From Elusimicrobiota bacterium (lineage in GTDB: Bacteria; Elusimicrobiota; Elusimicrobia; 2-01-FULL-59-12): a stretch of 64,000 bases of DNA. Every line of letters begins with the position of its first letter. The first letter of the stretch is position 1. The notes under the pieces are model-generated. The model was not told where the DNA came from and did no database searches. It saw only the letters and a program-made list of their open reading frames with translations. The stretch spans positions 28,883 through 92,882 of the forward strand of contig JBAZWU010000011.1 in the NCBI GenBank assembly GCA_041660185.1, read 5' to 3'. This document shows, one piece after another, positions 36,938 through 64,000 of the stretch. The position numbers and the translations under genes were made by a program.

Positions 36938-38592
36938 GACTGAATTTTAGACGAACCTTCTGGCTTCTGGCTGTTCCCCTTGGATTTTTCCAAGCCTGGG
37001 CCCTCCGGTTTAACATGGACCCCGACGGGATTTCTTATCTCGAAGTGGCTCAAGCCTATGCGCAAGGCCGATGGAACGACGCCTTCAACGCCTACTGGAG
37101 CCCGCTCTTTTCATGGATCCTGGCGGTCTTCCTGAAAGTGGTACATCCTTCCTCTTACTGGGAATTTCCGCTGATTCACCTGATCATTTTTTTCATTTAC
37201 CTGTTTGTGCTGGCAAGCTTTGACGACCTGCTCCGGCAGTTCCTGGCCTGGCACAAGACCCCCGCCGCCGATGCGGATCCCGGCTGGCACACGCTTCCGG
37301 AAGCGCTCTGGGAATGGATCGGGTACGCTCTGATTCTCTGGTGCACACTCTGGGCCCTGGGCCTGGCGCAAGCCACACCCAACCTGCTGGTGAGCGGATT
37401 TATTTTTCTGTCGGTCGGAATCGCTTTCCGTCTGCAGCGGGAAAATGTCTCCGGATGGCTTTATGTTTTATCGGGAGTCGTCCTTGGATTCGCTTATTTT
37501 GCCAAAGCCTATGCGTTCCTTTTCGGAGTGGCCTGGATCCTGGGGATGACGGGCGCGGCCTTTCTTCAGCGGCGGCCTATTCGACGTTATGCGCTGACCT
37601 TGGCTGTTTTTATTATCGTAACCGGCCCTTATATAGGCCTGTTGTCCCGGACGAAAAAACACTGGACCTTTGGCGACGCTTCATCCATCAATTACGCGGT
37701 CCATGTCAATCAAGCCCTTCCCTTGCCTTTCTGGACCGGGGATTTCCCGCCTGGCAGCGTGGCCAAACGCCTGGTTCGACAAATCATGAACCATCCGACG
37801 ATTTATGAATTTGATCGAGACATTCCTGCCAGTTTTCCCCTCTGGTATGACCCGGCTTACTGGATGGACGGCTTACGGCCCCGTTTTTCTGTCCGGGATC
37901 ACCTGAGCGCCTGGCGCGGGCATCTGAATGAATACACCCGGCTTCTTTTTTATGAACAGATCAGTCTCTGGACCGGAACGTTGATTCTCTTCGGGATGGC
38001 CCGGCGCTGGAAGCGGCTGATCAAACACGGGTGGCCGCTGCTGGTGCCGGCGCTGATCGGCTTTGGCATCTTCGCTCCGGTGCTGATGGCCAACAGCTAC
38101 ATCGCGCCGTTTATTGTTCTCGGCTGGCTGGGGATTCTGGCTGGGTTGGAATTTCCAACCGATGGGGTCACTTCGCGATGGTTGAGGCGCGTCGCGGGCG
38201 TTATGATCGCTGTCCCGCTTCTGCAAGTCGGTTACCGAATCGTCTCAGTTGTGCCGACGCGTTCAACCCCGTTCCACTGGCAGGTGGCGCAGAAGCTGCA
38301 CGAGTTAGGCCTGCGTCCGGGGGACCGGGTGGCGAGCTTTGACACCGGCTTTGGACAGTTCTGGGCGCATATCGGCGGATTTCGCCTGATCGCTGAAATT
38401 ACCGTTCCTGAGGAAGTGACCCTTATTACTCCGTCGAAGATGACGGAAATCGTTGGGGTCTTACGGGCGAAGGGCATTCGCGCATTCGTGGGACGGCAGG
38501 AACTGATTCCAGAAGACAGCCTCGGCGGCTGGCAACAACTTCACAACACACCTTACGCCGTTTACCTGATCAACCCAACTGAGGGGACGTAG
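36934..38592 (+). CDS. GT-C fold membrane glycosyltransferase (ArnT/PMT-like), paralogue 2 (ATGA overlap with paralogue 1)
   Basis: 'MRLNFRRTFWLLAVPLGFFQAWALRFNMDPDGISYLEVAQAYAQGRWNDAFNAYWSPLFSW' parallels paralogue 1. Its ATG at 36934 overlaps the TGA of the upstream gene. Confidence 0.6.
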   Translation: MRLNFRRTFWLLAVPLGFFQAWALRFNMDPDGISYLEVAQAYAQGRWNDAFNAYWSPLFSWILAVFLKVVHPSSYWEFPLIHLIIFFIYLFVLASFDDLLRQFLAWHKTPAADADPGWHTLPEALWEWIGYALILWCTLWALGLAQATPNLLVSGFIFLSVGIAFRLQRENVSGWLYVLSGVVLGFAYFAKAYAFLFGVAWILGMTGAAFLQRRPIRRYALTLAVFIIVTGPYIGLLSRTKKHWTFGDASSINYAVHVNQALPLPFWTGDFPPGSVAKRLVRQIMNHPTIYEFDRDIPASFPLWYDPAYWMDGLRPRFSVRDHLSAWRGHLNEYTRLLFYEQISLWTGTLILFGMARRWKRLIKHGWPLLVPALIGFGIFAPVLMANSYIAPFIVLGWLGILAGLEFPTDGVTSRWLRRVAGVMIAVPLLQVGYRIVSVVPTRSTPFHWQVAQKLHELGLRPGDRVASFDTGFGQFWAHIGGFRLIAEITVPEEVTLITPSKMTEIVGVLRAKGIRAFVGRQELIPEDSLGGWQQLHNTPYAVYLINPTEGT

Positions 38593-38658
38593 TTGCAACT
38601 TTGCATCGACTACGCCTCTCGTTGGCAAAGACAGCTGCAAAGTTGCAACTACGTCCCC
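38583..38658. repeat. REP pair (BIME-like): 23-bp 'GGGGACGTAGTTGCAACTTTGCA' and its inverted copy separated by 30 bp
   Basis: Forward copy 38583-38605, inverted copy 38636-38658. They sit between convergent gene ends. Confidence 0.85.
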
Positions 38659-39158
38659 TCCCCCAGACCCATCAGATCGACCATCGCTTGTTCGACGAGG
38701 CGGATCATGGGTGAGGGTTCTGTGCTGGGGCTTGGCGGCGGAGGATTATGGCTGGCTTTTCGGATCGCTTCCCGTAAATCAAAAATCTCATAGGCGGGGA
38801 TGACCCGCCCTTCATCGGCCAGTGCGCGGATCAACTGAAGCTGATGGTTATTCACATGCTCGCCATAGCGAGCCAGGCGCGGCACCACAATGGGGACTTT
38901 ACCGAGTGAGATCGCCTGCAGAAGCGTCCCGCAGCCGCCGTGACAGATGATGAGCCGGGCCTCCTTCAGGCACTCGAGAAAACGGTCCGCGGAAAGAAAA
39001 GCTTCGGTCCGGCTGTGACGGGGTTGGAAGTTTTCATTATGGCCCGTCTGCATAAAGACCGGCTCGCCTTGAAAGAGCGGGGTACCGGCCAGCGCGTCGA
39101 CCGCTTCCAACAGCCGGGAGAACCCCTGAGTCGCGTTGCCGACGGTCACAAAGATCAT
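38649..39158 (-). CDS. Alg13-like glycosyltransferase subunit (GT28 C-terminal domain; PssE-like)
   Basis: 'MIFVTVGNATQGFSRLLEAVDAL...LIICHGGCGTLLQAISLGKVPIVVPR...HQLQLIRALADEG' matches the Alg13/MurG-C pattern. The start is placed at MIFVTVG; an earlier in-frame Met at ~39260 is possible. Confidence 0.7.
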   Translation of the reverse strand: MIFVTVGNATQGFSRLLEAVDALAGTPLFQGEPVFMQTGHNENFQPRHSRTEAFLSADRFLECLKEARLIICHGGCGTLLQAISLGKVPIVVPRLARYGEHVNNHQLQLIRALADEGRVIPAYEIFDLREAIRKASHNPPPPSPSTEPSPMIRLVEQAMVDLMGLGEGT

Positions 39159-52209: not shown

Positions 52210-53367
52210 TTGATGTCTTTGGCTATGAAATCCCCTCACAAACCGGCGTTCGAGCTTCAACTCCTATGCAAACTCCTGGCTTTGCGGCCAAGCCAGGAGG
52301 AATGTCTTTCAGACCTCCGCGCACCAGGTTTTTGCTGGGATCTATTCCTTCAGTTGGCGGAGTACCACGGGGTGATCGGATTTCTCTACGAGGCCCTGAC
52401 CGAAACCGGCCTGGCCCGGGAAGTTCCACCCAAGCTCCTGGAAGCGCTGCGGCATTCCACTCTGGTTCTCCTGGAAGAGCACCTGCAGCACAGGAGCGCG
52501 ATCCGGAAAACGCTGGAAACCCTGAACGCGGCCGGGTTGGAATTTATCGTTATTAAAGGGTGGTCACACGCCGAATCACTTCATGGGAACCCCTGCGCCC
52601 GTCCCATCACGGACCTGGACCTTCTCGTACACGACACGAAGGCGGCTCAAGCCCTGCTGAAACAACAGAGACTGCCGGACCCATCGATCGTAGACTGGCA
52701 TATCTATCCCACAAACACGTCGGATCTGCCGTCCCGCATGCGGTGCCTGCAGCTCGACATCCAGACGCTCTGGGCGGATTCGCGCCTCGCCACGATCACA
52801 GACACGCCGGCGCGCGTTCTTTCTCCGGCTGACCAGGTCATCGCCCTGGTGATCGACTTCACGATTTCGCATGGGTTCGGGAGGCTACTCCTTTTAAAGG
52901 AGATCCTGCTTCTGGCTGAAAAAGTCGGATGGGATGCGCTGGTGAAGAGGGCTCAACTATTCCAGGCTGACATTTTGCTGTACTTGACCCTCCGCATGGG
53001 AGAGGAACTTCTGCGATTCCCGGTTCCCCTCGATATTTTAAAAATCTTAGGGACTCGCTTAAGGCAAGAAGAACACTGGCTGGAAAAACGGCTGATTCAA
53101 AATCCGCTTTTTACCCCGGCCCGGTATTTCTGTATTCCGATTCTCCTGCCTTCCTGGGCCGATCGCCTGAGTTTTGCCAAAGAACTGCTCTGGCCTCCCC
53201 CCTATTGGTTCGAGCTCCGCAGCGAAAAACCGTCTCTCTGGCGCCACCTCATCCATGACGCGACGCTTATCGGCAAGGCATGCGCCATTTTATGGAACGT
53301 CAGGGGACGTAGTTGCAACTTTGCAAAAGGTGCCGGAAAAAATCCTTTTTTCCCCAAGACCGGGTAA
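52210..53367 (+). CDS. uncharacterised nucleotidyltransferase family protein (PF14907/NTP_transf_5-like), RiPP-cluster accessory type
   Basis: 'LNAAGLEFIVIKGWSHAESLHGNPCARPITDLDLLVHDTKAAQALLKQQ' matches the IKG...R..DIDLLV...D signature of this family. Confidence 0.65.
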   Translation: MMSLAMKSPHKPAFELQLLCKLLALRPSQEECLSDLRAPGFCWDLFLQLAEYHGVIGFLYEALTETGLAREVPPKLLEALRHSTLVLLEEHLQHRSAIRKTLETLNAAGLEFIVIKGWSHAESLHGNPCARPITDLDLLVHDTKAAQALLKQQRLPDPSIVDWHIYPTNTSDLPSRMRCLQLDIQTLWADSRLATITDTPARVLSPADQVIALVIDFTISHGFGRLLLLKEILLLAEKVGWDALVKRAQLFQADILLYLTLRMGEELLRFPVPLDILKILGTRLRQEEHWLEKRLIQNPLFTPARYFCIPILLPSWADRLSFAKELLWPPPYWFELRSEKPSLWRHLIHDATLIGKACAILWNVRGRSCNFAKGAGKNPFFPKTG

Positions 53368-53423
53368 AACAAGAAATATAGGCCATTTCCTGTCTCGTTG
53401 TGCAAAGTTGCAACTACGTCCCC
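53303..53423. repeat. REP pair: forward 23-bp REP (53303-53325) and inverted copy (53401-53423) with 75-bp spacer
   Basis: Exact matches to GGGGACGTAGTTGCAACTTTGCA and its reverse complement. They sit between the nucleotidyltransferase and ABC ATPase genes. Confidence 0.85.
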
Positions 53424-53446
53424 TGACGTTTTATATACTCAAACGT

Positions 53447-54190
53447 GTGACTTGTTCCATCGACGTACGGGGTGTTTCGAAATCGTTTTTCCCGCGGCTC
53501 TCTTTATTAAAACCCTGGCAGCCGAGGCCCCCCGTCCGCGCGCTCAATCACGTGAACCTCCGGGTGGAAACAGGAACGGTTTTCGCCCTGCTGGGCCCGA
53601 ATGGTTCCGGCAAAACGACCCTCCTCAAAATCATCAGCACGCTTCTGATGCCGGATGCCGGGACGCTTCGCGTGCTGGGTCACGTCCTGCCGGGGCAGGA
53701 GGAACGCGTCAAAACGCGAATCAGTTTCGCCATGGGAGACGAGCGAAGTTTCTACTGGCGCCTGACCGCCCGGCAGAACTTGATGTTTTTTGCTGCGCTC
53801 TATGATCTTTCCCCCCGGCAATCCGAACAAAAGATCGCTGAACTGGGTGACGTGTTCAGCCTGAAAGACTACCTTGACCGCCCCTACGAAGAACTCTCAT
53901 CCGGGATCCGGCAGCGCCTGGCGATCGCGCGATCCTTTCTGAACGACGCGGCCCTCCTGCTGGCCGATGAACCCACCCGCAGCCTCGATGCGGCCGCCAG
54001 AAACGCGCTTCACGGACTTCTTCAAAAACTCGTGCGGGAACACGGAAAAACGATTCTCTTCACAACGCATAATTTTGAGGAAGCCCGACGGGTGGCGGAC
54101 ACGGTAGGGATTTTGAATCAGGGCCGGCTTTGTTACTCCGGAAAATGGAAAGACGGCCTGGAGAGTTACCTCAATGCCCCCGCTTCGTAA
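53447..54190 (+). CDS. ABC transporter ATP-binding protein
   Basis: 'LLGPNGSGKTTLLKII' is Walker A, 'LSSGIRQRLAIARSF' the signature, 'LLLADEPTRSLD' Walker B. A GTG start at 53447 is chosen downstream of the REP; the listed ORF starts earlier inside repeat DNA. Confidence 0.85.
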   Translation: MTCSIDVRGVSKSFFPRLSLLKPWQPRPPVRALNHVNLRVETGTVFALLGPNGSGKTTLLKIISTLLMPDAGTLRVLGHVLPGQEERVKTRISFAMGDERSFYWRLTARQNLMFFAALYDLSPRQSEQKIAELGDVFSLKDYLDRPYEELSSGIRQRLAIARSFLNDAALLLADEPTRSLDAAARNALHGLLQKLVREHGKTILFTTHNFEEARRVADTVGILNQGRLCYSGKWKDGLESYLNAPAS

Positions 54191-54989
54191 ACTCTGGGCT
54201 TTTTCCCTCCGGGACTGGCAGCTCGCCCAGACGTATCGCTTTACTTTTTTGTTTGAGGTGGTCCGCACGCTGATCTTGCTGCTCTCGTTTTATTTCATCG
54301 GCAAATTGGTCCGGAGCAGCGGTGTTCACCCATCCCTGGCTGTATACGGAGGCGATTACTTTCGCTTCGTCCTTTTGGGCATCGTGTTCAGCGGCTTCAT
54401 GTCCACCGCTCTGGGCAGCGTGCGGCAGACGATTGAATTTGAACGGGGGCATGGGACATTGGAAGCCATTTTACTGACCCCCACTCCCCTGATCACGCTC
54501 GTGATCAACAAAACCCTGTGGGATCTCGGCATGGTCACAGCCAAGGCCGTCCTGTATCTCCTGGCAGGAGTTTACTTTTTTCGAGTGGATCTCTCGCACG
54601 TTTATTGGACCAGCACGCTGGTGGCCATCGCTTTGACAGTCAGCACCTTTTTTGGTTTAGGGCTGATCTCCGCCGGTATTCATTTACTCATCCGGGAAGA
54701 CAGCCCTTTGGACCTGATTTTGGAAGGAGCCTCGCGCTTCCTGGGAGGCGTTTATTTCCCGGTGGCGGTTCTTCCCGCGCCTCTTCTCGCGCTGTCCCGC
54801 TGGGTGCCGCTCACCTATGCGCTCGACGCGATCCGAAAATCCATGATTCTTGGAGCTTCGCTTCAAACCATCCGGATGGAACTACTGGTGCTGGCAGGGT
54901 GTTCGATCGTTCTGGTTCCGATCGGCGTGATCTGTTTTCAGAGCGCTTTCAAGACCGCCCGACGCAGGGGAATTCTCAGCTTCGAGTAG
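54174..54989 (+). CDS. ABC-2 type transporter permease
   Basis: 271 aa, 6 TM. Overlaps the ATPase stop. The ABC-2 family topology is typical. Confidence 0.75.
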   Translation: MPPLRKLWAFSLRDWQLAQTYRFTFLFEVVRTLILLLSFYFIGKLVRSSGVHPSLAVYGGDYFRFVLLGIVFSGFMSTALGSVRQTIEFERGHGTLEAILLTPTPLITLVINKTLWDLGMVTAKAVLYLLAGVYFFRVDLSHVYWTSTLVAIALTVSTFFGLGLISAGIHLLIREDSPLDLILEGASRFLGGVYFPVAVLPAPLLALSRWVPLTYALDAIRKSMILGASLQTIRMELLVLAGCSIVLVPIGVICFQSAFKTARRRGILSFE

Positions 54990-55745
54990 GGTTTTACAAA
55001 GAAAGGCCATCGGCGCTGAAGGTTCCCCAGCCTGCTGGAAACCCAGGGACCGGTAAAGTCGGAGGGCAGCTTGATTATCCGATTCCACCGTTAAACAAAG
55101 TTCTCTGACCCCTTGTTGGCGTGCCGTCCGTATCAGCTCCCCTAACAACAAAGTCGCGATTCCGCCGCCGCGGACCCAAGCGCGGACAAGCAGGTCTTTG
55201 ATGTTTTCCTTTTGATTCGGCTTGACGACGAGAAAAACATAACCGGCTTTCCAAGAACCGATAAAGGCCTGAAAAACAAAGGCGCCCTCTTCTTCCATCC
55301 GATTAATCCGGACCCGCGAAGCCAAATAAACCCTGAACAACACACGGTATAAATGGAAAGACTGGACCCAGGACAAAACCCGGATTCCCGCCATTTTCAC
55401 TTGTCGCTTCATCCAGGAAGGCCCGTATCGAATGAACAGAAAAAGGAAATACCGTCTCCGAAGATCTTTTTCAAGGAAAATTCGGCTTCCCCGTTTGACC
55501 ATTTCCAAGCGACCGATCAATTGATCTTCGCGGATCCATTCGATCGCTAGCGGAAGCTCATCTCCTGCTACTCCGAAATAATTTGGCCCAGCCGACAATC
55601 GCCTGATGCACCTCAACCGGTGAGCCACCGGGTTATCGTGTTCCGTCTGGCGATAAAGCAGGATGTCTCCAATTTTGAGGGTGGTTGATGATGAGAAGGC
55701 CCGGACAAAAAGCTCATCGCCCGGGCGAAGGAAGGGCTGCATACT
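54882..55745 (-). CDS. fusion: S24/S26-type (signal-peptidase/LexA-like) serine peptidase domain + GNAT N-acetyltransferase domain
   Basis: The N-region 'GGSMQPFLRPGDELFVRA...IGDILLYRQ' matches the GDSMxPTL..GD box of Ser-Lys dyad peptidases. The C-region 'VRGGGIATLLLGELIRTARQQGVRELCLTVESDNQAALRLYRSLGF' is the GNAT acetyl-CoA binding motif. The start is placed at the internal Met; the ORF's first residues are REP-encoded. Confidence 0.55.
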   Translation of the reverse strand, partial: SMQPFLRPGDELFVRAFSSSTTLKIGDILLYRQTEHDNPVAHRLRCIRRLSAGPNYFGVAGDELPLAIEWIREDQLIGRLEMVKRGSRIFLEKDLRRRYFLFLFIRYGPSWMKRQVKMAGIRVLSWVQSFHLYRVLFRVYLASRVRINRMEEEGAFVFQAFIGSWKAGYVFLVVKPNQKENIKDLLVRAWVRGGGIATLLLGELIRTARQQGVRELCLTVESDNQAALRLYRSLGFQQAGEPSAPMAFLCKTLLEAENSPASGGLESALKTDHADRNQNDRTPCQHQ

Positions 55746-55785
55746 GCCACCCTCGGCCCGGCAGAAAAACGAGCCGGGAGCACTA

Positions 55786-55863
55786 GGGGACGTAGTTGCA
55801 ACTTTGCATAAGGTATTCATATGACACAAGATACCTTTGATGCAAAGTTGCAACTACGTCCCC
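55786..55863. repeat. REP pair: forward REP (55786-55808) and inverted copy (55841-55863) around a palindromic 32-bp spacer
   Basis: Exact 23-bp matches. The spacer 'taaggtattcatatgacacaagatacctttga' is itself an inverted repeat. Confidence 0.85.
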
Positions 55864-55887
55864 TGGCGGTCTTTCGCGACATCTCCG

Positions 55888-56091
55888 TCAGGACGTGGTG
55901 GCGCCGGAATCCCGGGCGGTTGTCACGCTTGCCCGCCGGCAACCGTTGGAGGTCCGACATCCCTTTGTTCCTCTGACAGACAAGCTGGTGCCGCTTCGTG
56001 TGCATGTGCTGAGAATGGCCTGCTCCCGGCGGAGCACAACTTGGGTGATTTGCGGGGACTGATACGGCTTTTTTTCAGTTACAGTCGTCAT
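55888..56091 (-). CDS. candidate RiPP precursor peptide (67 aa: leader MTTVTEKKPYQSPQITQVVLRREQAIL; Cys/Ser/Thr/Arg-rich core)
   Basis: The ATG starts immediately after the TAA of the upstream radical SAM gene. A strong SD 'AGAGGGAGAG' lies 5-14 nt upstream. My translation gives MTTVTEKKPYQSPQITQ... as listed. The core has 3 Cys and 18 Ser/Thr. Confidence 0.5.
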   Translation of the reverse strand: MTTVTEKKPYQSPQITQVVLRREQAILSTCTRSGTSLSVRGTKGCRTSNGCRRASVTTARDSGATTS

Positions 56092-57141
56092 TTAGCTCTC
56101 CCTCTGTGCGATAAACATCGCTTTTTTCTCCGCGACTTCCCGAAAATAGGGCATGCAAGGGGCATCAAATGCTTTTTGGTCCAACCAACCATCCATGCTT
56201 CCCCGATCGCAATGAAACGCGATCGGACAGGATGAGCACGCGTAGGCAGGGCCCGGCTTCTGCGCCGCGACAAACTTCACCAACGTTTGCCAGCCTTTTT
56301 CAACCGACCCCGCCGTCACATCATACGACGGATGATGGATGCAGACACAAAGATTCATCCGGCCATGAGGCGTCAAAGCGGCGTTGCTCTTGCCACAAAG
56401 ACAATCGAACAGTTTCCCGGCGGAACCGCATTTCCCCTCCAAGGATCCGCCGGCCTCTTGCATTGGCTTTCCGCTATTTTCACGCCATATCTCGAAAACC
56501 CTGGCAGGCGACAACCGGTACATCAAGGGTTCTTTTGAACCGTCCACTCTGGGATAGATGTCCGTGCCGATCCGATAGGGCAGTTGACGGGACCGGGCGA
56601 AGTCTTTCATGGGCTCCAGTTCGTGTTCATTCAGCGTCATCAAAACGAGTTTCAGCAGGATGGGGATATGCCTTTCTTTCAGCCAATCAACCCCCTCGAC
56701 AAAATGAGCGTAGGAACCGGGGATGCGCGTCACAGATTCATAACTGTCAGCCGTGGCGCCATAAACGGAAATTTCCACCAGATAAGGATCCAACTCCGCC
56801 ATCTGATCCGCCAGCGCCGGCGTGATCAGAGTGGCGTTCGTAGTGATCGTAATCACCATCCCAAGTGAGCGGGCATACCGCATAATCTCACAGGCATCCC
56901 GCCGGGTGAACACCTCTCCTCCGGTGAAACCGATCCACAGGCATCCCTGAGCCGCCATCTCATCTAACAGTCGGTAAACCTGTTCCGTGGTCAGTTCCTG
57001 TTTCGCTTCGTGGGTTGTGTTATAACAGTGCACGCAGCGCAGGTTGCAGCCGTACGTCAGCTCCACCGTGGCCTGAATCCACTGCGGACGGGCCTTGGCG
57101 TCCTCACTCAGCTGATCGATGAATTGATCAAACTCTTTCAT
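56092..57141 (-). CDS. radical SAM/SPASM domain peptide-modifying enzyme (rSAM-1)
   Basis: 'TYGCNLRCVHCY' is CxxxCxxC. The C-terminal Cys-rich SPASM region is 'CGSAGKLFDCLCGKS...CVCIHH...CSSCPIAFHCDRG'. The start is placed at 'MKEFDQ' (14-nt overlap with the kinase gene). Confidence 0.85.
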   Translation of the reverse strand: MKEFDQFIDQLSEDAKARPQWIQATVELTYGCNLRCVHCYNTTHEAKQELTTEQVYRLLDEMAAQGCLWIGFTGGEVFTRRDACEIMRYARSLGMVITITTNATLITPALADQMAELDPYLVEISVYGATADSYESVTRIPGSYAHFVEGVDWLKERHIPILLKLVLMTLNEHELEPMKDFARSRQLPYRIGTDIYPRVDGSKEPLMYRLSPARVFEIWRENSGKPMQEAGGSLEGKCGSAGKLFDCLCGKSNAALTPHGRMNLCVCIHHPSYDVTAGSVEKGWQTLVKFVAAQKPGPAYACSSCPIAFHCDRGSMDGWLDQKAFDAPCMPYFREVAEKKAMFIAQRES

Positions 57142-58012
57142 AAAGATAACGGACGATACGGTTGTCTTGAGTAAAGCGCAGTTCGCCGCTGGGAACATCC
57201 TTGACCAGGCGGGTCGCTGCCTCCACGAGCCGTGCCATGGCTTCCTGATTCCAAAGAGGCAAATACGCTTCCGTGAAAATCGATTTCAATACGGGCTGAG
57301 GCGGCCGCGGGAGAAACTGATTGTCCGTCGCCTGGACCAGAACTGAAAAACGCTTGAGAAGCGCTGCCCCCTTGGAAACCTGCCGAAGCTCGCCGTGCCA
57401 GGGCGTTCCCGCTACGTGCCAGTGTTTTCCCTCCCGCCAGAGAAGAATACGCTCGTCATTCAGCACCTGAGCGGAAGAATGTGTCCGGAAGAGCCTGGAA
57501 ATCGTGGTCTTGCCGGCGCCGGAGTGACCGATGAATGCCAGCCCCTTGCCCGACAGAGAAACCGCTGCCCCATGCAAAATCATCCCTTTCCTCCGAAGCG
57601 CCAGCCAGCCGGTCAGCCACCATTGGATCAAAGGCTCGGCCACATCTCCCAGGTACCACCCCTTCTGGCGAAGCCCGGGTGACCGGTACGTGAGCGGAAT
57701 CAGATGGAGATCGATTTGATCCCACTTCGGGGTGATGAAACACACCTGCCTGGGCAGAAAATGCATTTGTTCCAGAATTTCCAATCGCACTCTGCCCCTC
57801 TCCTGGTAGACGCGCCATTGATTGGGAAGCTCATAAAGGAAGCGGGGCTTCCCATGCGGCTTGGGCGCATCGGTCCGGACCTGGATGGTCACGGTCGGCG
57901 GGAGAGAATTTCTGTCTTCAAAGACACCGCAAAATTCATGCGGCCAATCATGCGGCGGGGTATCCGCGATAAATCGAATGACGGCAGGGCCGATTTTGAT
58001 AGTGAGCTTCAT
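57128..58012 (-). CDS. HPr kinase/phosphorylase C-terminal-domain-like protein (HprK-related kinase)
   Basis: 'GMILHGAAVSLSGKGLAFIGHSGAGKTT' is a P-loop in the HprK-C context. It overlaps the rSAM-2 stop (ATGA) and the rSAM-1 start. Confidence 0.7.
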   Translation of the reverse strand: MKLTIKIGPAVIRFIADTPPHDWPHEFCGVFEDRNSLPPTVTIQVRTDAPKPHGKPRFLYELPNQWRVYQERGRVRLEILEQMHFLPRQVCFITPKWDQIDLHLIPLTYRSPGLRQKGWYLGDVAEPLIQWWLTGWLALRRKGMILHGAAVSLSGKGLAFIGHSGAGKTTISRLFRTHSSAQVLNDERILLWREGKHWHVAGTPWHGELRQVSKGAALLKRFSVLVQATDNQFLPRPPQPVLKSIFTEAYLPLWNQEAMARLVEAATRLVKDVPSGELRFTQDNRIVRYLYERV

Positions 58013-59274
58013 GACGATGCCCCCTCACCCCTACCCTCCCCCTCAACAGGGGGAGGGAGCGTAAGATTTTTCGCGGATGTATCCCCTCTCCCTGCTGAGG
58101 GAGAGGGGCTGGGGGTGAAGGTCAAGATGCTGGCAGTTTGCCGAGCTTTCGCTACTTCACAGAAATAAGGGACCGGCGCTTCCATGGACCCTGCCTCATG
58201 GATCGCCATCACGGGATTTTTGTCGCAGAACAGATGGGAGGAACAACTCCGGCACGCCGACTCCCCGGTGTAGCGGGCCTGATTGATTTCCTCGGCTGAG
58301 CGCTGGAACGCCTCGGAAACAGGGATCGTTTTCAGATCATACGACGGCCAGGTGGTGAACGTGCAGGGGCGAAACACACCGTACGGACTGACCGTCAATT
58401 GATTGGTCCCGCATCCGCAGCGAAAGAGCCGGTCATCCGGGGGGGGACCCTCACCCCAACCCTCCCCCTCAACAGGGGGAGGGAGTATGAAATCTGCGGG
58501 GGATCCCCCCTCTCCCTGTTGAGGGAGAGGGCAAGCAGGACGACCGCTAGGTCGGACAGGCGCGGGTGAGGGTTTACACTCCTCTGCCACCTCCAGTTCA
58601 GCCACCTCGGCTCCAGATAACCGGTACTGCGTGGAGGAAAGGTCCCCGTTCAAACGCGGGTAAATCGTGGGATAGAGACTGAAATCCACCCCCAATCCTT
58701 CCACGTACGCTCTGATCTCGCCCAATTCCTGACGATTAACGGTCATGGCCTTGGTTTTGATCGCCACCGACAAACGCCGGTCCAGTAACCGGCGGATCCC
58801 TGCCTGAAAACACGCGTAGGAACCCGGCACCTGGGTCACCCGCTCAAAGGTCTCGGCACGAACGCCATGCAAACTCACCTCCAACTGAAAGGGAGGGTCC
58901 TTGGCGAGAAAATCCGCGATCTCGTCCGTGATCGTTGTCCCGTTGGTGAATAACGCGATCAGGAATCCTCTCTCCTTGGCCGCACGATATATATCCTTGA
59001 ATCGCGGATGAAGTACCGCTTCTCCTCCGGTGAGGGTAAGCCAGAGCACGCCGGCGGAGGCCAGGTCGTCAAGAATCCGGATCATTCCCGGCAGCGGCAA
59101 TTCCCGCGACAACGCCGTCGGGGTGTTAAAGGGGTCTGTAAAACAATGGACGCAATGGAGATTACATCGGTAAGTCAGTTCCAACTGTGCCTTGAGAGGA
59201 CTCCGATTTTCGACGCTCCGGGAAAAGACCCGGGCGCTGAACACACTGTACATTTCTTCTTGAAACTTGCTCAT
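58009..59274 (-). CDS. radical SAM/SPASM domain enzyme (rSAM-2) carrying in-frame repeat-encoded P/G/E-rich linker and C-terminal tail
   Basis: 'TYRCNLHCVHCF' is the rSAM motif. SPASM 'CGCGTN...CTFTT...CRSCSSHLFCDK'. The segment 'PLPQQGEGGSPADFILPPPVEGEGWGEGPPP' between the rSAM and SPASM domains and the tail 'LPPPVEGEGRGEGASS' are encoded by the palindromic repeats at 58447-58572 and 58021-58120. Confidence 0.8.
   Translation of the reverse strand: MSKFQEEMYSVFSARVFSRSVENRSPLKAQLELTYRCNLHCVHCFTDPFNTPTALSRELPLPGMIRILDDLASAGVLWLTLTGGEAVLHPRFKDIYRAAKERGFLIALFTNGTTITDEIADFLAKDPPFQLEVSLHGVRAETFERVTQVPGSYACFQAGIRRLLDRRLSVAIKTKAMTVNRQELGEIRAYVEGLGVDFSLYPTIYPRLNGDLSSTQYRLSGAEVAELEVAEECKPSPAPVRPSGRPACPLPQQGEGGSPADFILPPPVEGEGWGEGPPPDDRLFRCGCGTNQLTVSPYGVFRPCTFTTWPSYDLKTIPVSEAFQRSAEEINQARYTGESACRSCSSHLFCDKNPVMAIHEAGSMEAPVPYFCEVAKARQTASILTFTPSPSPSAGRGDTSAKNLTLPPPVEGEGRGEGASS
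58021..58120. repeat. P/G/E-coding palindromic 'GEG' repeat, copy C (overlapping rSAM-2 3' end / HprK-like start)
   Basis: 'cccctcacccctaccctccccctcaacagggggagggag...cccctctccctgctgagggagaggggctgggggtgaagg'. Confidence 0.8.
58447..58572. repeat. P/G/E-coding palindromic 'GEG' repeat, copy D (long variant), inserted in-frame inside rSAM-2
   Basis: 'ccctcaccccaaccctccccctcaacagggggagggag...cccccctctccctgttgagggagagggcaagcaggacgaccgctaggtcggacaggcgcgggtgaggg'. It shares its tail with copy A (26757-26886). Confidence 0.8.
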
Positions 59275-59306
59275 TTCCTAAACCCTCTAACGAACACATC
59301 TACGGA

Positions 59307-59396
59307 ACCCTCATCCGGCCTGCGGCCACCTTCCCTCTCAACAGGGGGAAGGACATTCTCCCTCTCCCTGTTGAGGGAGAGGGGACGGGGGTGAGG
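59307..59396. repeat. P/G/E-coding palindromic 'GEG' repeat, copy E (intergenic between rSAM-3 and rSAM-2)
   Basis: 'ccttccctctcaacagggggaagga...ccctctccctgttgagggagaggggacgggggtgaggg'. Confidence 0.8.
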
Positions 59397-59397
59397 G

Positions 59398-61575
59398 TTA
59401 AATGGTTTGGACAGCACCGATCGCCCGAAGTTCCGACAAATACGTCGCGACGTCCTGTTCGGCAACAGCGGAATCCACTGTAAATGCTTTTCCCAGCAAC
59501 GCTGTCAGTTCCCGGCCCGTACGCCGGCCGTCAATCTGTTCCCACAGGAAAGCGCCGACCTCATTCAACGTATAAAGAGATGGCTCCTGATTCGGCTGCC
59601 GGTTCGCGGGAACCAGAACCATCTCCCCCGCCACCCGGCGGGCCACCATCGTCGGGCACTTTTGAAACCGAAAATCCAGCTGTTCTGTTGAAGCCGCCAT
59701 GATCGTTCCTCCGCTTTTTTTCAGGTTCTGTATGATGCTGTTCCAGTTCTGTCGGGCGGCCGGCCACTCCGGGTCCAACTCCATCAAGCGCTCGTATTCC
59801 CGCAGGGCCGGTTCCCACTGTTTGAGAAATTCTTCCTTGTAAGCGGGCGTAGCATACAACGTTCGATAAGAGGGGTCCAGGGAAATCATCCGCTCCCAGG
59901 CTTCCCGGGCCGACGGGACATCGTTCCGCCCGAGGGCTTCGCAGACTTGCTCATAAACGCGCGCCGCCGAGCCGGCAGGCGGTTGATCCTCGACGAGAGC
60001 AGCGGGATCCAGCAGCGCGCGCTGAATGAGATCGCCGAAATATTTGTACCGCAGCGGCGTGTATCCTTTATTGACCGAGTACGAAAGGGTCACAAAGTCC
60101 GTCGGCAGCTCAACGGCCCGGAGACGCCGGAGAAAGTGACTCGGCTGCAGCCAGGGACCGGCGTAGTCGCTGTCAAAATACGGAAACAATCCAGTCCCGT
60201 CGATGTGGCGAGTCAGGAGATAATCCACATCGATGTCCAGGAGAACCGGTTTTATAAAGCGGGGCAGCGACTCCAGCCGGCACACCGTCAACGGGCATCC
60301 CATCAATAGGAGATGAATCCCTGTCTCGGAAACCCGTAAAGGGCCTGCCGAATCCGGTCTCGCATGAATCATTTCGTTAATCCATTGAATGAGTTTCTGC
60401 CGTTGGTCAGGGGTTTCCCAAAAACCATCAGGGATGACCCAATAAAGCTCGCGGATGAAGCCTTCCCGGATGGCTGGATAAAGGAAATTACCACTGTCCA
60501 TCGCTTTATGCGGAGGATGGTCATCGATCCAGAAAAAATCCAGATGACCGTCCAGATGAATCAGGGTTCGGCCCTGGACTCCAGCGTCTTTCCAGAGGGT
60601 GTAGGCCGTCTCATGATCTTCCATCAGATGGATCGACTTCGAAGGAATCGGATCAGCCGCCGCCAGGGATTTCTTTCGGGGGCAGGGAAAGCTCGGCAGC
60701 GCTTTGTAAAACCCTTCCAGAAAGGAGCCTCGTCTCAAGTCGTAGCTGGCCCGCCGGTTGTTGGAACACAGCTGAAGCTGCCCGTACGCATCGATGTGGA
60801 ATTTGTAGCGTCCCCCCTGACAGGGGAAGTCATCGGGGTATGTGGCGTGGCCGTCACGCTCCCGCTCCGCCCAGAGCTGAGGGTCCTGACGCTCGATGGC
60901 CGCCAGGTCTTTGTCGGACAACTGGAATCGCAGAGGGGCTCCACTGCCGGTCAGATCATCGAGCAGGTGTTCTCCAAACTGAAAAGACACGCCGGGACCG
61001 AAGTCGTCCACATAACGTTTGATCGCCAAAATCTCGTCCCGGTTCAGCGTCGTCCCCACTGTTTTCAACGTCACCGGGATCTGCCGTTCCATCAAAAGCC
61101 GAACCGCCTCCACATTCAGGGGACGTAGTTGCAACTTTGCACAAACAGCATCAGAGATCGCATGAAGGCTGATTTCCACCCGCACGGGAGGCATCCTGGC
61201 CCATTGATCGGCGATCTCGCGCGTGATGAGCGTTCCATTGGAGAAAACCGTAATGAGAAATCCAAAACGGTGAGCGGTTTCATAAATCTCCATGAAATCA
61301 GGCCGGCACAGCGGCTCCCCGCCGGTGAACGTGACTTCCAGGCAACCCGCGGCCTGGATCTCATGGAGAATGCGAAGGATGTCAGCGGTAGGAAGCTCCT
61401 GACGGATCCGCTCCGGCGTATTGAAACAATCCGTATAGCACATGGCACACGTCAGATTGCACCGGCAGGTGAGTTCCCACTGGCCGACCAAAGGAGCGCG
61501 ACCCTGGAGAGAACGGGCCAAGACTTGATCGCCGAAAACCTGCGATGAGCGGGTCGGGAAAGCGGGGATGGCCAT
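59398..61575 (-). CDS. multidomain protein: radical SAM (twitch/SPASM-like) domain + ~300-aa uncharacterised domain + TPR-like segment + C-terminal PqqD-like (RRE) domain (rSAM-3)
   Basis: 'LTCRCNLTCAMCY' is the rSAM cluster motif. The middle has a 'HLDGHLDFFWIDD' metal-site-like motif. The C-terminus 'LYTLNEVGAFLWEQIDGRRTGRELTALLGKAFTVDSAVAEQDVATYLSELRAIGAV' matches the PqqD fold pattern. The start is placed at 'MAIPAF'; the listed ORF starts within a REP. Confidence 0.75.
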   Translation of the reverse strand: MAIPAFPTRSSQVFGDQVLARSLQGRAPLVGQWELTCRCNLTCAMCYTDCFNTPERIRQELPTADILRILHEIQAAGCLEVTFTGGEPLCRPDFMEIYETAHRFGFLITVFSNGTLITREIADQWARMPPVRVEISLHAISDAVCAKLQLRPLNVEAVRLLMERQIPVTLKTVGTTLNRDEILAIKRYVDDFGPGVSFQFGEHLLDDLTGSGAPLRFQLSDKDLAAIERQDPQLWAERERDGHATYPDDFPCQGGRYKFHIDAYGQLQLCSNNRRASYDLRRGSFLEGFYKALPSFPCPRKKSLAAADPIPSKSIHLMEDHETAYTLWKDAGVQGRTLIHLDGHLDFFWIDDHPPHKAMDSGNFLYPAIREGFIRELYWVIPDGFWETPDQRQKLIQWINEMIHARPDSAGPLRVSETGIHLLLMGCPLTVCRLESLPRFIKPVLLDIDVDYLLTRHIDGTGLFPYFDSDYAGPWLQPSHFLRRLRAVELPTDFVTLSYSVNKGYTPLRYKYFGDLIQRALLDPAALVEDQPPAGSAARVYEQVCEALGRNDVPSAREAWERMISLDPSYRTLYATPAYKEEFLKQWEPALREYERLMELDPEWPAARQNWNSIIQNLKKSGGTIMAASTEQLDFRFQKCPTMVARRVAGEMVLVPANRQPNQEPSLYTLNEVGAFLWEQIDGRRTGRELTALLGKAFTVDSAVAEQDVATYLSELRAIGAVQTI
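61119..61141. repeat. single REP copy lying in-frame inside the rSAM-3 coding sequence (encodes ...AKLQLRPL...)
   Basis: Exact 23-bp 'ggggacgtagttgcaactttgca'. Protein length around it appears normal for the rSAM fold. Confidence 0.8.
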
Positions 61576-61592
61576 GCCGTTATCGTAGGACG

Positions 61593-62621
61593 TCAGGGGA
61601 CGTAGTTGCAACTTTGCATATTGAGTCTTTCCTTAAGCTCAAACCGATGGGCCAGGCGCTGACCTCGTTCAAATGCCCTGCTGGCGGTGCTCGTTGATAG
61701 AACGAGTTGCTTCCCCATCCCGGTGACAGATTGCTTAAACCAGACTACTCCGGCATATACCGCCATGGCCTTCGCATCTGACAGCGCGCGCCGCTGACCC
61801 GTTTCGGAAAAGTAATGGGGGTCTTCTCCGGTCAGATCGGCAATAAGATCCAATACCTTTTCAAAATTGATTGATTTTGGAATGGGCGTTTCATCACAAC
61901 CGTCTTTCGCCTTGCGCAGGGTTTCTTCCACAAAAGCACTGTCCCCCAGCAAACGTAGGTCGTACGCGTAGGCTTCACCGCTTCTGATGGCCTGCAGAGC
62001 AGGACCTCCCCCTCCCCAACTACGAATAAGTCCGCCTCCTTCTAACTGGTCCTGTCGTTTCTGACTCCAAGCCTCCATTACAAATAATTCGTAGTTTGCC
62101 CGCGCCTGGCGCAAAGTCGGGCCAAAACGTTCAAGAACTTTCCCGGCAACCTGCCAGGGCCTGTCTAAGGTACCCATCAGAGCCGAGTGGCTTGTCCAAG
62201 GATAGACAGCCAGTTCAGAAGGCGATCGGACAATTCCCGCGCGCACTGGGTTAAGAGCGATATAACGTATCAGCTCCAGAAAATAGGGATCCTCCTGACA
62301 GATGATGTCCTTGTATCGGTTTTGAAACAAATGACCGGCGCGCTGATAGCGCAGGTTAAATGAGACGGCATACCCAGTCAAAAGCTTTTGCATGACCCGA
62401 GAAATGCGCGTGGAAGCCGTCTGGAGCAACAGGTGCAGGTGATTAGGCATGAGCGCCCAGGCGTAACAGAGGGTTTTCGTTTCTTGGAGGATGCGACCTA
62501 ACCGGTCGGCGAATTCGGAGTAATCTCGATTTGATCTAAAAATAGAGCGTTTTTCAATTCCCCTCGCGATTACGTGATGAAAGAGTCCAGGGAAGTCGAT
62601 ACGAGGTAAACGTGGCATCAC
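61593..62621 (-). mobile_element. REP-associated tyrosine transposase (RAYT; IS200/IS605-family Y1 HUH transposase) with ~190-aa C-terminal extension, flanked by inverted REPs (61596-61618 and 62665-62687)
   Basis: 'MPRLPRIDFPGLFHHVIARGIEKRSIFRSNRDYSEFADRL...YAWALMPNHLHLLLQT' contains the HuH motif (HLH) and the Y1 architecture. The REP at its 3' end encodes the C-terminal '...MQSCNYVP'. An inverted REP with 1 mismatch lies 44 bp upstream of the start. Confidence 0.75.
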
Positions 62622-62697
62622 TTACTTAGATAAAGTTTTTGGCGATATATTCGAGGGGGTGCTATGAAAAGTTGCAACTACGTCCCCTGACGTTGGT

Positions 62698-63900
62698 TTA
62701 GCGCATCAGGTTCAGGACGTATTGCTGGCCTTCTTCGAATTGACCGCGATGAACAGGGTTTAAATCCCGGATAAATAGTTCCGCCTGCCATTGTTCAAAA
62801 ATCACGAAGTCAAACACCCGGTTCATGCCGCATTCGATCCCTGTCCCGCGAAAAAGACCGGCCTGCAGGGAAGCCGGGAACCGCTCCAACTGCCGGGGGA
62901 ACCGGGCAGAGCAACGCATGTCGGTTCTCCACAAGTCGTACAAAAACCCTCCGACTCCTTCGAGAAAGGGGTCCCGCTGCGAAGCCGCCAGATGACTGAC
63001 CCGCTCGTCCAACCAGGGGGCCATGCGGGCGAAGCTCGGATCCATGCTGTACCAATAGCGGGCCGACAATCGGCCGGCTGTCCTCAAAAATGAATGGGCC
63101 CTGGGATCATCCGGCAGAGAAGGAATGGCCCGCCGCAATTTGATCAAGTGTTCGGACCGCAGAGGAAATTCCTTCCCTTCCCCAAATGACAACCCCAGGA
63201 ATGCCTGCTCCGAGCAGCGAGGTGAAATTCGATCAAAGACCCGGCCTGTCTCCAAAGCCCTTTTTGGAACCCAGGCGTCCCGCCGCAAGACCGGCTCAGC
63301 CAGAGAGAAGCAGAGATAGTTTTTCCACATGTCCGGCGCCTTCTCCGCCTCTTCGATCAAAATCGCCTCGCCATGGGGCTGAGGATTGTTCCACGCAACG
63401 AACTGCGTGACCGCGGCGGTTAACTCGGCGGCGTCTTCCGGCCCCAGACGTCCGATCAGGCGCTCGTAGTAGCGCCGGCAGGCTTCGCTGGAGGAAGCAA
63501 AAACCGCCGGCAGATACTGGTACGTGTATCCCTTGGCCGTCAGGCAGCGCCCGATGCTGGCTGTCGAGAAAAATGAAATGCTGGACAGGATGCCGCCGCT
63601 GATCAACAAACCCACGACCCACTTTGCGTTCAAACAACTCATCGCCCAGGCCGCCGCCAGGAAGATAAACGGCAGCGCGGGGATCCGGTACCGCATAATA
63701 TCCAACTCCGGACTCGCCGACTGCAGCACGACAACAAAAATAAATAGAGTCAGGACACTCAACCGGATGAGGGGAGGAACAGCTTTTTTCACCCGCCAGA
63801 CCGATAAGGCGGTCATCCCCCCAAACAAAACGCTATAGAGAGCATCCACCCAAAGACGCTGTCGGGAAGGCCACTCTTCGCTGGCAAACGATTTAGCCAA
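62698..63900 (-). CDS. hypothetical membrane-anchored protein
   Basis: 400 aa. N-terminal TMs ('LSVLTLFIFVVVLQ', 'ALPFIFLAAAWAM', 'VVGLLISGGILSSISFF') are followed by a large soluble domain. No family recognised. Confidence 0.4.
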   Translation of the reverse strand: MAKSFASEEWPSRQRLWVDALYSVLFGGMTALSVWRVKKAVPPLIRLSVLTLFIFVVVLQSASPELDIMRYRIPALPFIFLAAAWAMSCLNAKWVVGLLISGGILSSISFFSTASIGRCLTAKGYTYQYLPAVFASSSEACRRYYERLIGRLGPEDAAELTAAVTQFVAWNNPQPHGEAILIEEAEKAPDMWKNYLCFSLAEPVLRRDAWVPKRALETGRVFDRISPRCSEQAFLGLSFGEGKEFPLRSEHLIKLRRAIPSLPDDPRAHSFLRTAGRLSARYWYSMDPSFARMAPWLDERVSHLAASQRDPFLEGVGGFLYDLWRTDMRCSARFPRQLERFPASLQAGLFRGTGIECGMNRVFDFVIFEQWQAELFIRDLNPVHRGQFEEGQQYVLNLMR

Positions 63901-64000
63901 CCGGTAAATACCGCTCTGGCGAAGGTGCGTGAACCCATCAAGAAAATAGTGTCCGCTGAAAAAGGACCAGAGAGACCCTGATTCGCCGATAAATAACCCG

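Follow-up and report, generated by a model that had tools for sequence, protein, structure and literature searches.

A repetitive extragenic palindromic sequence in place of a conserved segment of a radical SAM gene beside a REP-associated transposase gene in an Elusimicrobiota bacterium

Results

Replacement of a conserved segment in rSAM-3

A stretch of 64,000 nucleotides from an Elusimicrobiota bacterium (assembly GCA_041660185.1, contig JBAZWU010000011.1, positions 28,883 to 92,882 of the forward strand), referred to here as the window, contains a gene for a radical S-adenosylmethionine (SAM) protein, rSAM-3, in which a copy of a short repetitive extragenic palindromic (REP) sequence is read in frame within the radical SAM domain. 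Judged from an alignment of orthologues, the REP is a secondary feature that replaced a conserved coding segment in frame, because conservation is normal in the remainder of the domain. The replacement is probably a mutational scar, left when a solo, 5′-truncated REP from a neighbouring REP and transposase system entered the gene and displaced coding DNA. The coordinates of the features are given in Table 1.

The site was examined using an alignment of rSAM-3 with 120 orthologues and the radical SAM part of a fused relative, P0002, giving 121 sequences of 50–63% identity that are together called orthologues below. An earlier note on this DNA had described an exact 23-bp REP at 61119–61141 inside the coding sequence, read as AKLQLRPL between EISLHAIS and VEAVRLL, and this was confirmed. 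The minus-strand reading is EISLHAISDAV-C-AKLQLRPL-N-VEAVRLL, with the REP supplying the third base of the codon for Cys145, all of Ala146–Leu153 (AKLQLRPL) and the first base of the codon for Asn154. At this site all 121 orthologues contain the pattern EISLHG-xxxx-F-[DE]-x-[VI]-T-Q-x-x-G-S-x-x-R-C-L-x-x-I-x-L-L, and REP-like residues are found in none of the 121. The REP-encoded residues are thus not shared with the orthologues by descent, and derivation of the REP family from the rSAM-3 gene could be ruled out. The most conserved residues of the block are the Phe (99%), Thr (98%), Gly (94%), Ser (100%), Arg (92%) and Cys (99%). None of these six residues, each at least 92% conserved, is kept by rSAM-3, while 105 of the 121 orthologues keep all six and every orthologue keeps at least four.

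The earlier note had regarded the spacing to the flanking segments as normal and without obvious length change, which did not hold: the stretch between a conserved His and a conserved Lys is 32 residues in rSAM-3 compared to 36 in 120 of the 121 orthologues, the exceptional orthologue being one residue shorter. Outside the block, rSAM-3 agrees with the orthologues at 98 of the 105 columns with at least 90% conservation. The note had proposed either an insertion with a compensating deletion or the replacement of the usual segment, and the alignment bears this out in that a conserved segment of 14 residues has been replaced. The segment it expected at this position, xxIRGxxGxF, was also correctly identified, as the block F-[DE]-x-[VI]-T-Q-x-x-G-S-x-x-R-C is the family version of the HDxxRGxxGxF motif of SPASM/twitch enzymes and aligns with HDQLRGRKGGF of SkfB.

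The closest orthologue, P0017, is 63% identical to rSAM-3, with 97 of 144 and 94 of 164 identities in the two halves of the alignment and 1 of 10 in the block, where P0017 has the segment FEGVTRVPGSLARC. The two halves are similarly close to P0017, which rules out a chimeric gene formed by recombination between REPs. When the codons of the two genes were aligned, the similarity ended at GCT GTT T at the left junction and restarted at (C/G)TG G.G GC. GT. CGG. Approximately 41 nt of ancestral sequence correspond to approximately 29 nt in the window, 26 of which are REP, giving a net loss of 12 nt (four residues) with the frame kept; the length of the 24-nt REP core is itself a multiple of three.

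A search of positions 60700–61600 for a degenerate partner REP, as the remnant of a doublet, found none with up to 12 mismatches of 30. A regulatory role of the copy was rejected, as no promoter-like or terminator-like sites were found at or near it and the predicted folding of the solo copy was no stronger than that of shuffled sequence. The antisense or overlapping open reading frames (ORFs) with an end in the REP, at 60364..61128 (+), 61129..61548 (+) and 61116..61448 (-) matched no Pfam family and were treated as shadows of the long ORF.

Table 1. Positions in the window of the rSAM-3 gene, the transposase gene and the REP copies.
Feature	Position	Strand	Description
rSAM-3 ORF, 725 aa from ATG 61575	59398..61575	-	Radical SAM + Cys domain + UPF0489-like/TPR/PqqD; frame open to 61611
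Codons 145–154 (C-AKLQLRPL-N) of rSAM-3	61114..61143	-	10 residues compared to 14 in every orthologue
Intragenic solo REP, 5′-truncated	61116..61141	+	24-nt core at 61118–61141; lacks the 5′ arm (ACGTC) of the first hairpin
Full REP flanking the transposase gene	61589..61618	+	Two small hairpins; overlaps the transposase ORF and ends 21 nt upstream of the rSAM-3 ATG
Transposase (Y1/HUH tyrosine transposase) gene, 342 aa	61593..62621	-	Y1_Tnp domain; HLH (HUH) and RYIALNPV tyrosine motifs
REP on the opposite side of the transposase gene, inverted	62665..62694	-	1 mismatch in the 23-mer
Inverted REP doublet (REPIN-like)	38582..38659		Between two convergent ORFs; one long hairpin, -33 kcal/mol, z = -10
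Inverted REP doublet (REPIN-like)	53296..53430		Gene ends/intergenic; long hairpin, -46 kcal/mol, z = -11
Inverted REP doublet (REPIN-like)	55785..55865		Between rSAM-1 and a GNAT/peptidase gene; long hairpin, -36 kcal/mol, z = -12

Domains and start of the rSAM-3 gene

The radical SAM core of rSAM-3 covers residues 34–187 (PF04055, E = 5.8e-22) and contains the CxxxCxxC motif as CNLTCAMC and the GGE motif as TGGEP. It is followed by a cysteine-containing domain that runs to approximately residue 300, in which C252, C270 and C298 of the auxiliary domain occupy columns that are invariant in the alignment with rSAM-3 included, then by a UPF0489-like/TPR region and finally by a PqqD domain at residues 651–721 (E = 6e-14). 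The fold matches were PqqE, SkfB, viperin, SuiB, CteB and MoaA. The anSME-type label of the earlier note was not supported, as rSAM-3 is not a curated anSME and falls far below the cut-offs of all the named NCBIfam families: against the curated radical SAM equivalogs (anSME-like, NirJ, ScmE/F, PqqE and GeoRSP) the best score was 73 bits, compared to cut-offs of 265–650.

The start of the gene is annotated differently by different sources. The ATG at 61575 gives an N-terminus that matches P0017 residue for residue and, from this alignment, is likely to be the true start. The NCBI model (MFA5976318.1, "PqqD family peptide modification chaperone") has 737 residues and begins at a TTG at 61611 inside the upstream REP, and this database protein contains the REP-encoded QLRPL twice, once at the N-terminus and once internally. 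The JGI model has 681 residues and starts inside the CxxxCxxC motif. Exact-protein look-ups of rSAM-3 in its 681-, 725- and 737-residue forms, and of rSAM-2 and rSAM-1, returned no record.

Orthologues of the radical SAM part occur as separate proteins with approximately 325 residues. In a syntenic cluster, L003, the UPF0489-TPR-PqqD protein is encoded by a separate gene and is 45% identical to the C-terminal part of rSAM-3, and the order of the cluster is that of the window: radical SAM, PqqD protein, radical SAM, ScmC/HprK-like protein, radical SAM. The two parts are also separate genes in Acidobacteria (A3H97_01180/01185). The fusion junction of rSAM-3 lies near residues 296–335, and in P0002 the two parts are fused in the reverse order. 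A nucleotidyltransferase/HEPN pair, resembling a toxin-antitoxin pair, lies at L003:11028–11758 between the rSAM-3 orthologue and the PqqD-protein gene; with the fusion in rSAM-3, the same junction has therefore been changed in two lineages.

Position of the segment in the fold

AlphaFold models of rSAM-3 and P0017 were built with the orthologue alignments. The model of P0017 contained strand β4 at residues 132–136, a helix at 142–149, a short loop, a helix at 154–167 and strand β5 at 172–177, with predicted local distance difference test (pLDDT) values of 97–98 for residue blocks 141–150 and 151–160. The model of rSAM-3 contained β4 at 132–136, a helix at 142–147, a loop at 148–154, a helix at 155–163 and β5 at 168–173. 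As modelled, the REP peptide takes the place of the C-terminal half of helix α4, the loop after it and the opening turn of the helix that follows, all between β4 and β5. In a profile alignment to solved structures the block was placed opposite HDQLRGRKGGFKES of SkfB, in the HDQLRGRKGGF region, and opposite LFQSINNRNIKATT of MoaA. The canonical SAM-binding elements of radical SAM cores are the cluster loop, the GGE motif, the β4 ribose motif, the β5 motif and the β6 motif. The block lies between the β4 and β5 elements, and the lost residues are therefore specific to the family or subfamily and not universal SAM ligands. The proposal of the earlier note that repeat-derived sequence is part of an enzyme core and may affect function held for the position; the effect on function stays a matter of likelihood. 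The models are driven by the alignments and cannot show that rSAM-3 is stable or active.

The REP family

With up to 3 mismatches allowed, the 23-mer GGGGACGTAGTTGCAACTTTGCA was found nine times in the window, eight times as an exact match. The chance expectation is zero, as none of 100 dinucleotide-preserving shuffles gave a match. A 24-nt core, consisting of the 23-mer and a leading A, is common to all nine copies with identical boundaries, and four copies, including both that flank the transposase gene, reach the full form AACGTCAGGGGACGTAGTTGCAACTTTGCA. The intragenic copy has 26 nt (TCAGGGG...TGCA) in common with four other copies. The repeat contains GTAG (ACGTAGTTGCAACTTTGCA). When folded, the full 31-nt REP gave two 5-bp hairpins (-7.7 kcal/mol, z = -4.0), while the intragenic copy retains the second hairpin alone (z about 0). 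The three inverted doublets of the window fold as long hairpins with z = -10 to -12.

The other eight window copies are intergenic or at gene ends, and the copy at 61119 is the only one that lies deep inside a conserved domain. No copies were found in the first 38 kb of the window. The copies gather around the transposase gene and in a peptide-modification cluster with three radical SAM genes (window 53296–64000); the family is small and spread within approximately 25 kb of the transposase gene, and of the 11 copies known on the window contig and the extension provided by a second contig, L004, eight are within approximately 9 kb of it. Such clustering would fit a transposase that acts locally (in cis). 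Two more doublets of the 23-mer were found on two short contigs (L001 and L002) of one metagenome, and the metagenome scan for the 23-mer gave nothing beyond these. An exact scan of 185,579 species genomes for the 23-mer gave no matches, and a scan with a relaxed REP pattern gave four isolated matches, none with a transposase nearby.

Contig L004 comes from a second sample and is 100% identical to positions 61594–64000, breaking off in the REP at 61594; it represents the same strain as the window. At L004:872–899 (approximately 64,740–64,767 in window numbering, past the window end) there is a degenerate solo REP with 2 mismatches, oriented like the REP at 62665 and approximately 2.1 kb past it, adjoined by a partial duplication of GCCAGGGGACG. 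With this copy there is therefore a nested REP pair on each side of the transposase gene.

The transposase gene

The 342-residue ORF next to rSAM-3 matched the Pfam family Y1_Tnp (IS200-like, PF01797) with E = 1.2e-9 and 38.7 bits against a gathering score of 23. Its sole NCBIfam match was the REP-associated tyrosine transposase (RAYT) family NF047646 (E = 3e-17), at 62.8 bits against an equivalog cut-off of 80, which was therefore not reached. The protein is 100% identical to one from an Elusimicrobiota metagenome-assembled genome, named "REP element-mobilizing transposase RayT" by JGI, and belongs to a large family of proteins of approximately 335 residues, many of which also contain Pfam Bac_DnaA_C. 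The gene is bracketed by inverted REPs of 24–31 nt, and the TGA stop codon of its ORF (..MQSCNYVP*) is supplied by the adjoining REP (61596–61618). It lies approximately 450 bases from the intragenic copy, which is in direct orientation to the REP at 61589..61618 and 477 nt from it. Together these features identify a small, locally clustered REP/RAYT system that is REPIN-like.

A transposase of 64% identity, encoded on contig L005, is also flanked by inverted repeats, which have the first hairpin, ACGTCAGGGGACGT, in common with the REP of the window. They differ from it in their second part and lack GTAG, the L005 repeat having ACGTTCATG at the place where the window REP has GTAG. Two direct copies of another palindrome of 42 nt (GGGCCAGACTCAAGGT..ACCTTGAGCCTGGCCC) bracket these REP-like flanks at L005:2539–2580 and 3709–3750, and could represent either a target duplication or a repeat of another type. 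The upstream gene in the window was compared with the upstream gene of L003 to define the RAYT insertion site, and no similarity was found.

Discussion

Origin of the replacement

The evidence above makes it probable that the replacement arose from the neighbouring REP/RAYT system. A solo, 5′-truncated REP would have entered the adjacent rSAM-3 gene, with the neighbouring RAYT as the presumed producer of the copy. Coding DNA would have been lost with the entry of the REP, or an insertion would have been followed by a later deletion, taking out approximately 41 nt and leaving approximately 29 nt of REP and a few further bases. Translation of the REP as AKLQLRPL would then have cost the protein six near-invariant residues of its family, by which radical SAM activity or substrate handling may be impaired or altered; a loss or change of rSAM-3 activity is likely. 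An in-frame scar may have been the sole survivable outcome, since the rSAM-3 ORF carries the UPF0489-TPR-PqqD module downstream as a translational fusion. The fused PqqD-containing module could in this way explain an open frame even with a damaged radical SAM domain.

Several observations weigh against this account. With the 5′ arm of its first hairpin missing, the intragenic copy is not an obvious outcome of normal transposition by the RAYT. Neither a REP-free allele nor a relative closer than the 63%-identical orthologue was found, and the events may have run as insertion then deletion, as one-step replacement or as template switching to the REP 477 nt away. The only independent assembly of the strain, L004, ends at 61594, short of the intragenic copy. 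With regard to damage, the block is outside the canonical SAM-binding motifs, the replaced segment is confidently modelled in rSAM-3 (pLDDT 88 for residues 141–150 and 93 for 151–160), the gene carries no pseudogene flag at NCBI, and the enzyme may still be working.

It is possible, though somewhat doubtful, that the replacement is tolerated or neutral, with the peptide on the outer helices of the barrel, rSAM-3 fully functional and the repeat DNA co-opted as coding sequence. The ORF is intact over 725 codons, the CxxxCxxC and GGE motifs, the β4 and β5 residues and the C-terminal cysteines are all kept, the block is between and not in the β4 and β5 motifs, and the AlphaFold model keeps the fold. 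Intragenic REPs that survive have also been argued to be mostly neutral (Di Nocera, De Gregorio and Rocco 2013, PMC3733652). Against this, the six lost residues are 92–100% conserved in 121 orthologues, among them a Ser that is invariant and, at 99% each, a Phe and a Cys, and no orthologue shows a length change at the site save the one that is a single residue shorter. The confidence of the AlphaFold model is alignment-driven and silent on activity.

The replacement could also have arisen without the transposase, by replication template switching or gene conversion with the REP 477 nt upstream, or another copy, as the source; this is considered unlikely. Such an origin would suit the exchange of approximately 41 nt for approximately 29 nt, which is a replacement and not a simple insertion, as well as the proximity of a donor-like copy in direct orientation and the shortening of the intragenic copy compared to the full 31-nt form. 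At the aligned position P0017 reads GTCCCC, which could be a microhomology with CGTCCCC in the REP; however, the microhomology of the actual ancestor is not knowable from an orthologue of 63% identity, and there is no convincing microhomology at the left junction. The intact RAYT gene adjoining rSAM-3, and the clustering of solo and doublet copies around it, also speak for the transposase.

That the REP-bearing rSAM-3 works with REP DNA recruited for an invariant core segment, or that the direct REPs make an excisable on/off cassette, is taken together very improbable. The cassette by itself, in which the REPs at 61119 and 61596 would make the 5′ part of rSAM-3 excisable by the transposase as a programmed switch of the peptide-modification cluster, deserves almost no credence. 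IS200/IS605-type Y1 transposases act on two same-strand hairpins, and here two same-strand REPs lie 477 nt apart beside an intact Y1 transposase gene, with a mirror-image pair across that gene formed by the REP at 62665 and the degenerate copy on L004. Neither excision products nor alternative alleles are in evidence, however, and the hairpin missing from the intragenic copy is the first one, which RAYT lineages have in common. Clustering of REPs by a RAYT gene is expected without a switch function. An assembly artefact, or the birth of the REP family from the rSAM-3 gene, is just as hard to credit: the intragenic copy is present in one assembly only, but the sequences on its two sides are parts of one gene, read in one frame and collinear with the orthologues, which a mis-join at a repeat of 26 nt would not produce, the same protein is present on a 94.7-kb contig in JGI and NCBI, and the REP sequence occurs in none of the 121 orthologues.

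Comparison with known systems

Rickettsia palindromic elements (RPEs) are the classic case of selfish palindromic repeats that lie in frame inside protein-coding genes that stay open. They are insertions of approximately 100–150 bp, and the peptide they add is usually located outside conserved cores. The REP in rSAM-3 resembles them in being in frame in a gene that stays open; however, RPEs add residues and remove none, while the case in rSAM-3 is a replacement by 24–26 nt in a conserved core segment, with four residues lost.

The RPEs (Ogata et al. 2000) are cited in the study of GTAG/CGTC REPs by Di Nocera and co-workers (PMC3733652), which described RAYT-linked hairpin repeats that are mostly intergenic and often form inverted dimers. 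A minority of these are wholly inside ORFs for known proteins and are translated in frame, the highest numbers being those of Opitutus terrae and Rickettsia conorii, and the stop codons of flanking ORFs are also provided by REP termini. Similarly, the REP of the window gives the RAYT gene its stop codon and the rSAM-3 gene its NCBI-called start. The published cases are described as inserts that add residues, often 20–30 from dimers, whereas in the window a single truncated REP replaces a segment. A further difference is that the GTAG tag does not appear to be conserved in the REP group of the window, as the RAYT lineage of L005 is without it.

The system also resembles the REPIN/RAYT systems described by Bertels and Rainey (2011, PMC3116915), with a Y1 transposase gene flanked by inverted REPs and inverted doublets that fold as long hairpins. 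Unlike those systems, the transposase of the window has approximately 340 residues with a C-terminal extension, which in homologues matches Pfam Bac_DnaA_C, the family is small and clustered, and the copy in rSAM-3 is a single, intragenic REP.

In fold and sequence profile rSAM-3 matches SPASM/twitch maturases (SkfB, 6EFN; PqqE, 6C8V; SuiB; CteB) and those of SynChlorMet-type cassettes, which the window cluster resembles in having three radical SAM genes, a PqqD-domain protein and an HprK-related/ScmC-like protein. It differs from these maturases in lacking the conserved α4 segment, in being fused to a PqqD-containing protein and in scoring below all curated equivalog cut-offs.

With in-frame intragenic REPs and RPEs already known, the kind of event seen in rSAM-3 is unusual but documented. 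It is distinct in being a net-deletion replacement in a conserved core segment and not an added peptide, and in adjoining a putative transposase gene. As such it provides a clean natural case of a REP as a mutagen of coding sequence, in which no surface loop was added and a segment of fixed length in 121 orthologues was overwritten. If the enzyme works, the α4 region of SPASM/twitch radical SAM enzymes would have unexpected plasticity. If it is dead, a REP/RAYT system would be eroding a neighbouring biosynthetic cluster while selection on the fused downstream domain keeps the frame open. The gene also calls for caution in annotation, since NCBI names rSAM-3 only as a PqqD chaperone and places its start inside a REP.

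A second repeat family in rSAM-2

A second repeat family is present in the window as five copies of a composite palindromic element of approximately 95–130 bp, with outer arms ACCCTCACCCC/GGGGTGAGGGT and two inner hairpins. Copies at 58448–58572 and 58022–58123 lie in the neighbouring rSAM-2 gene (ORF 58009..59274, minus strand). One copy forms a C-terminal extension of rSAM-2. Another is in frame and provides an insertion of 33 residues (..PLPQQGEGGSPADFILPPPVEGEGWGEG..) that the L003 orthologue lacks. This insertion is RPE-like and separates the radical SAM core from the Cys-rich C-terminal domain, and, with residues added and none removed, it is a closer analogue of the RPEs than the replacement in rSAM-3.

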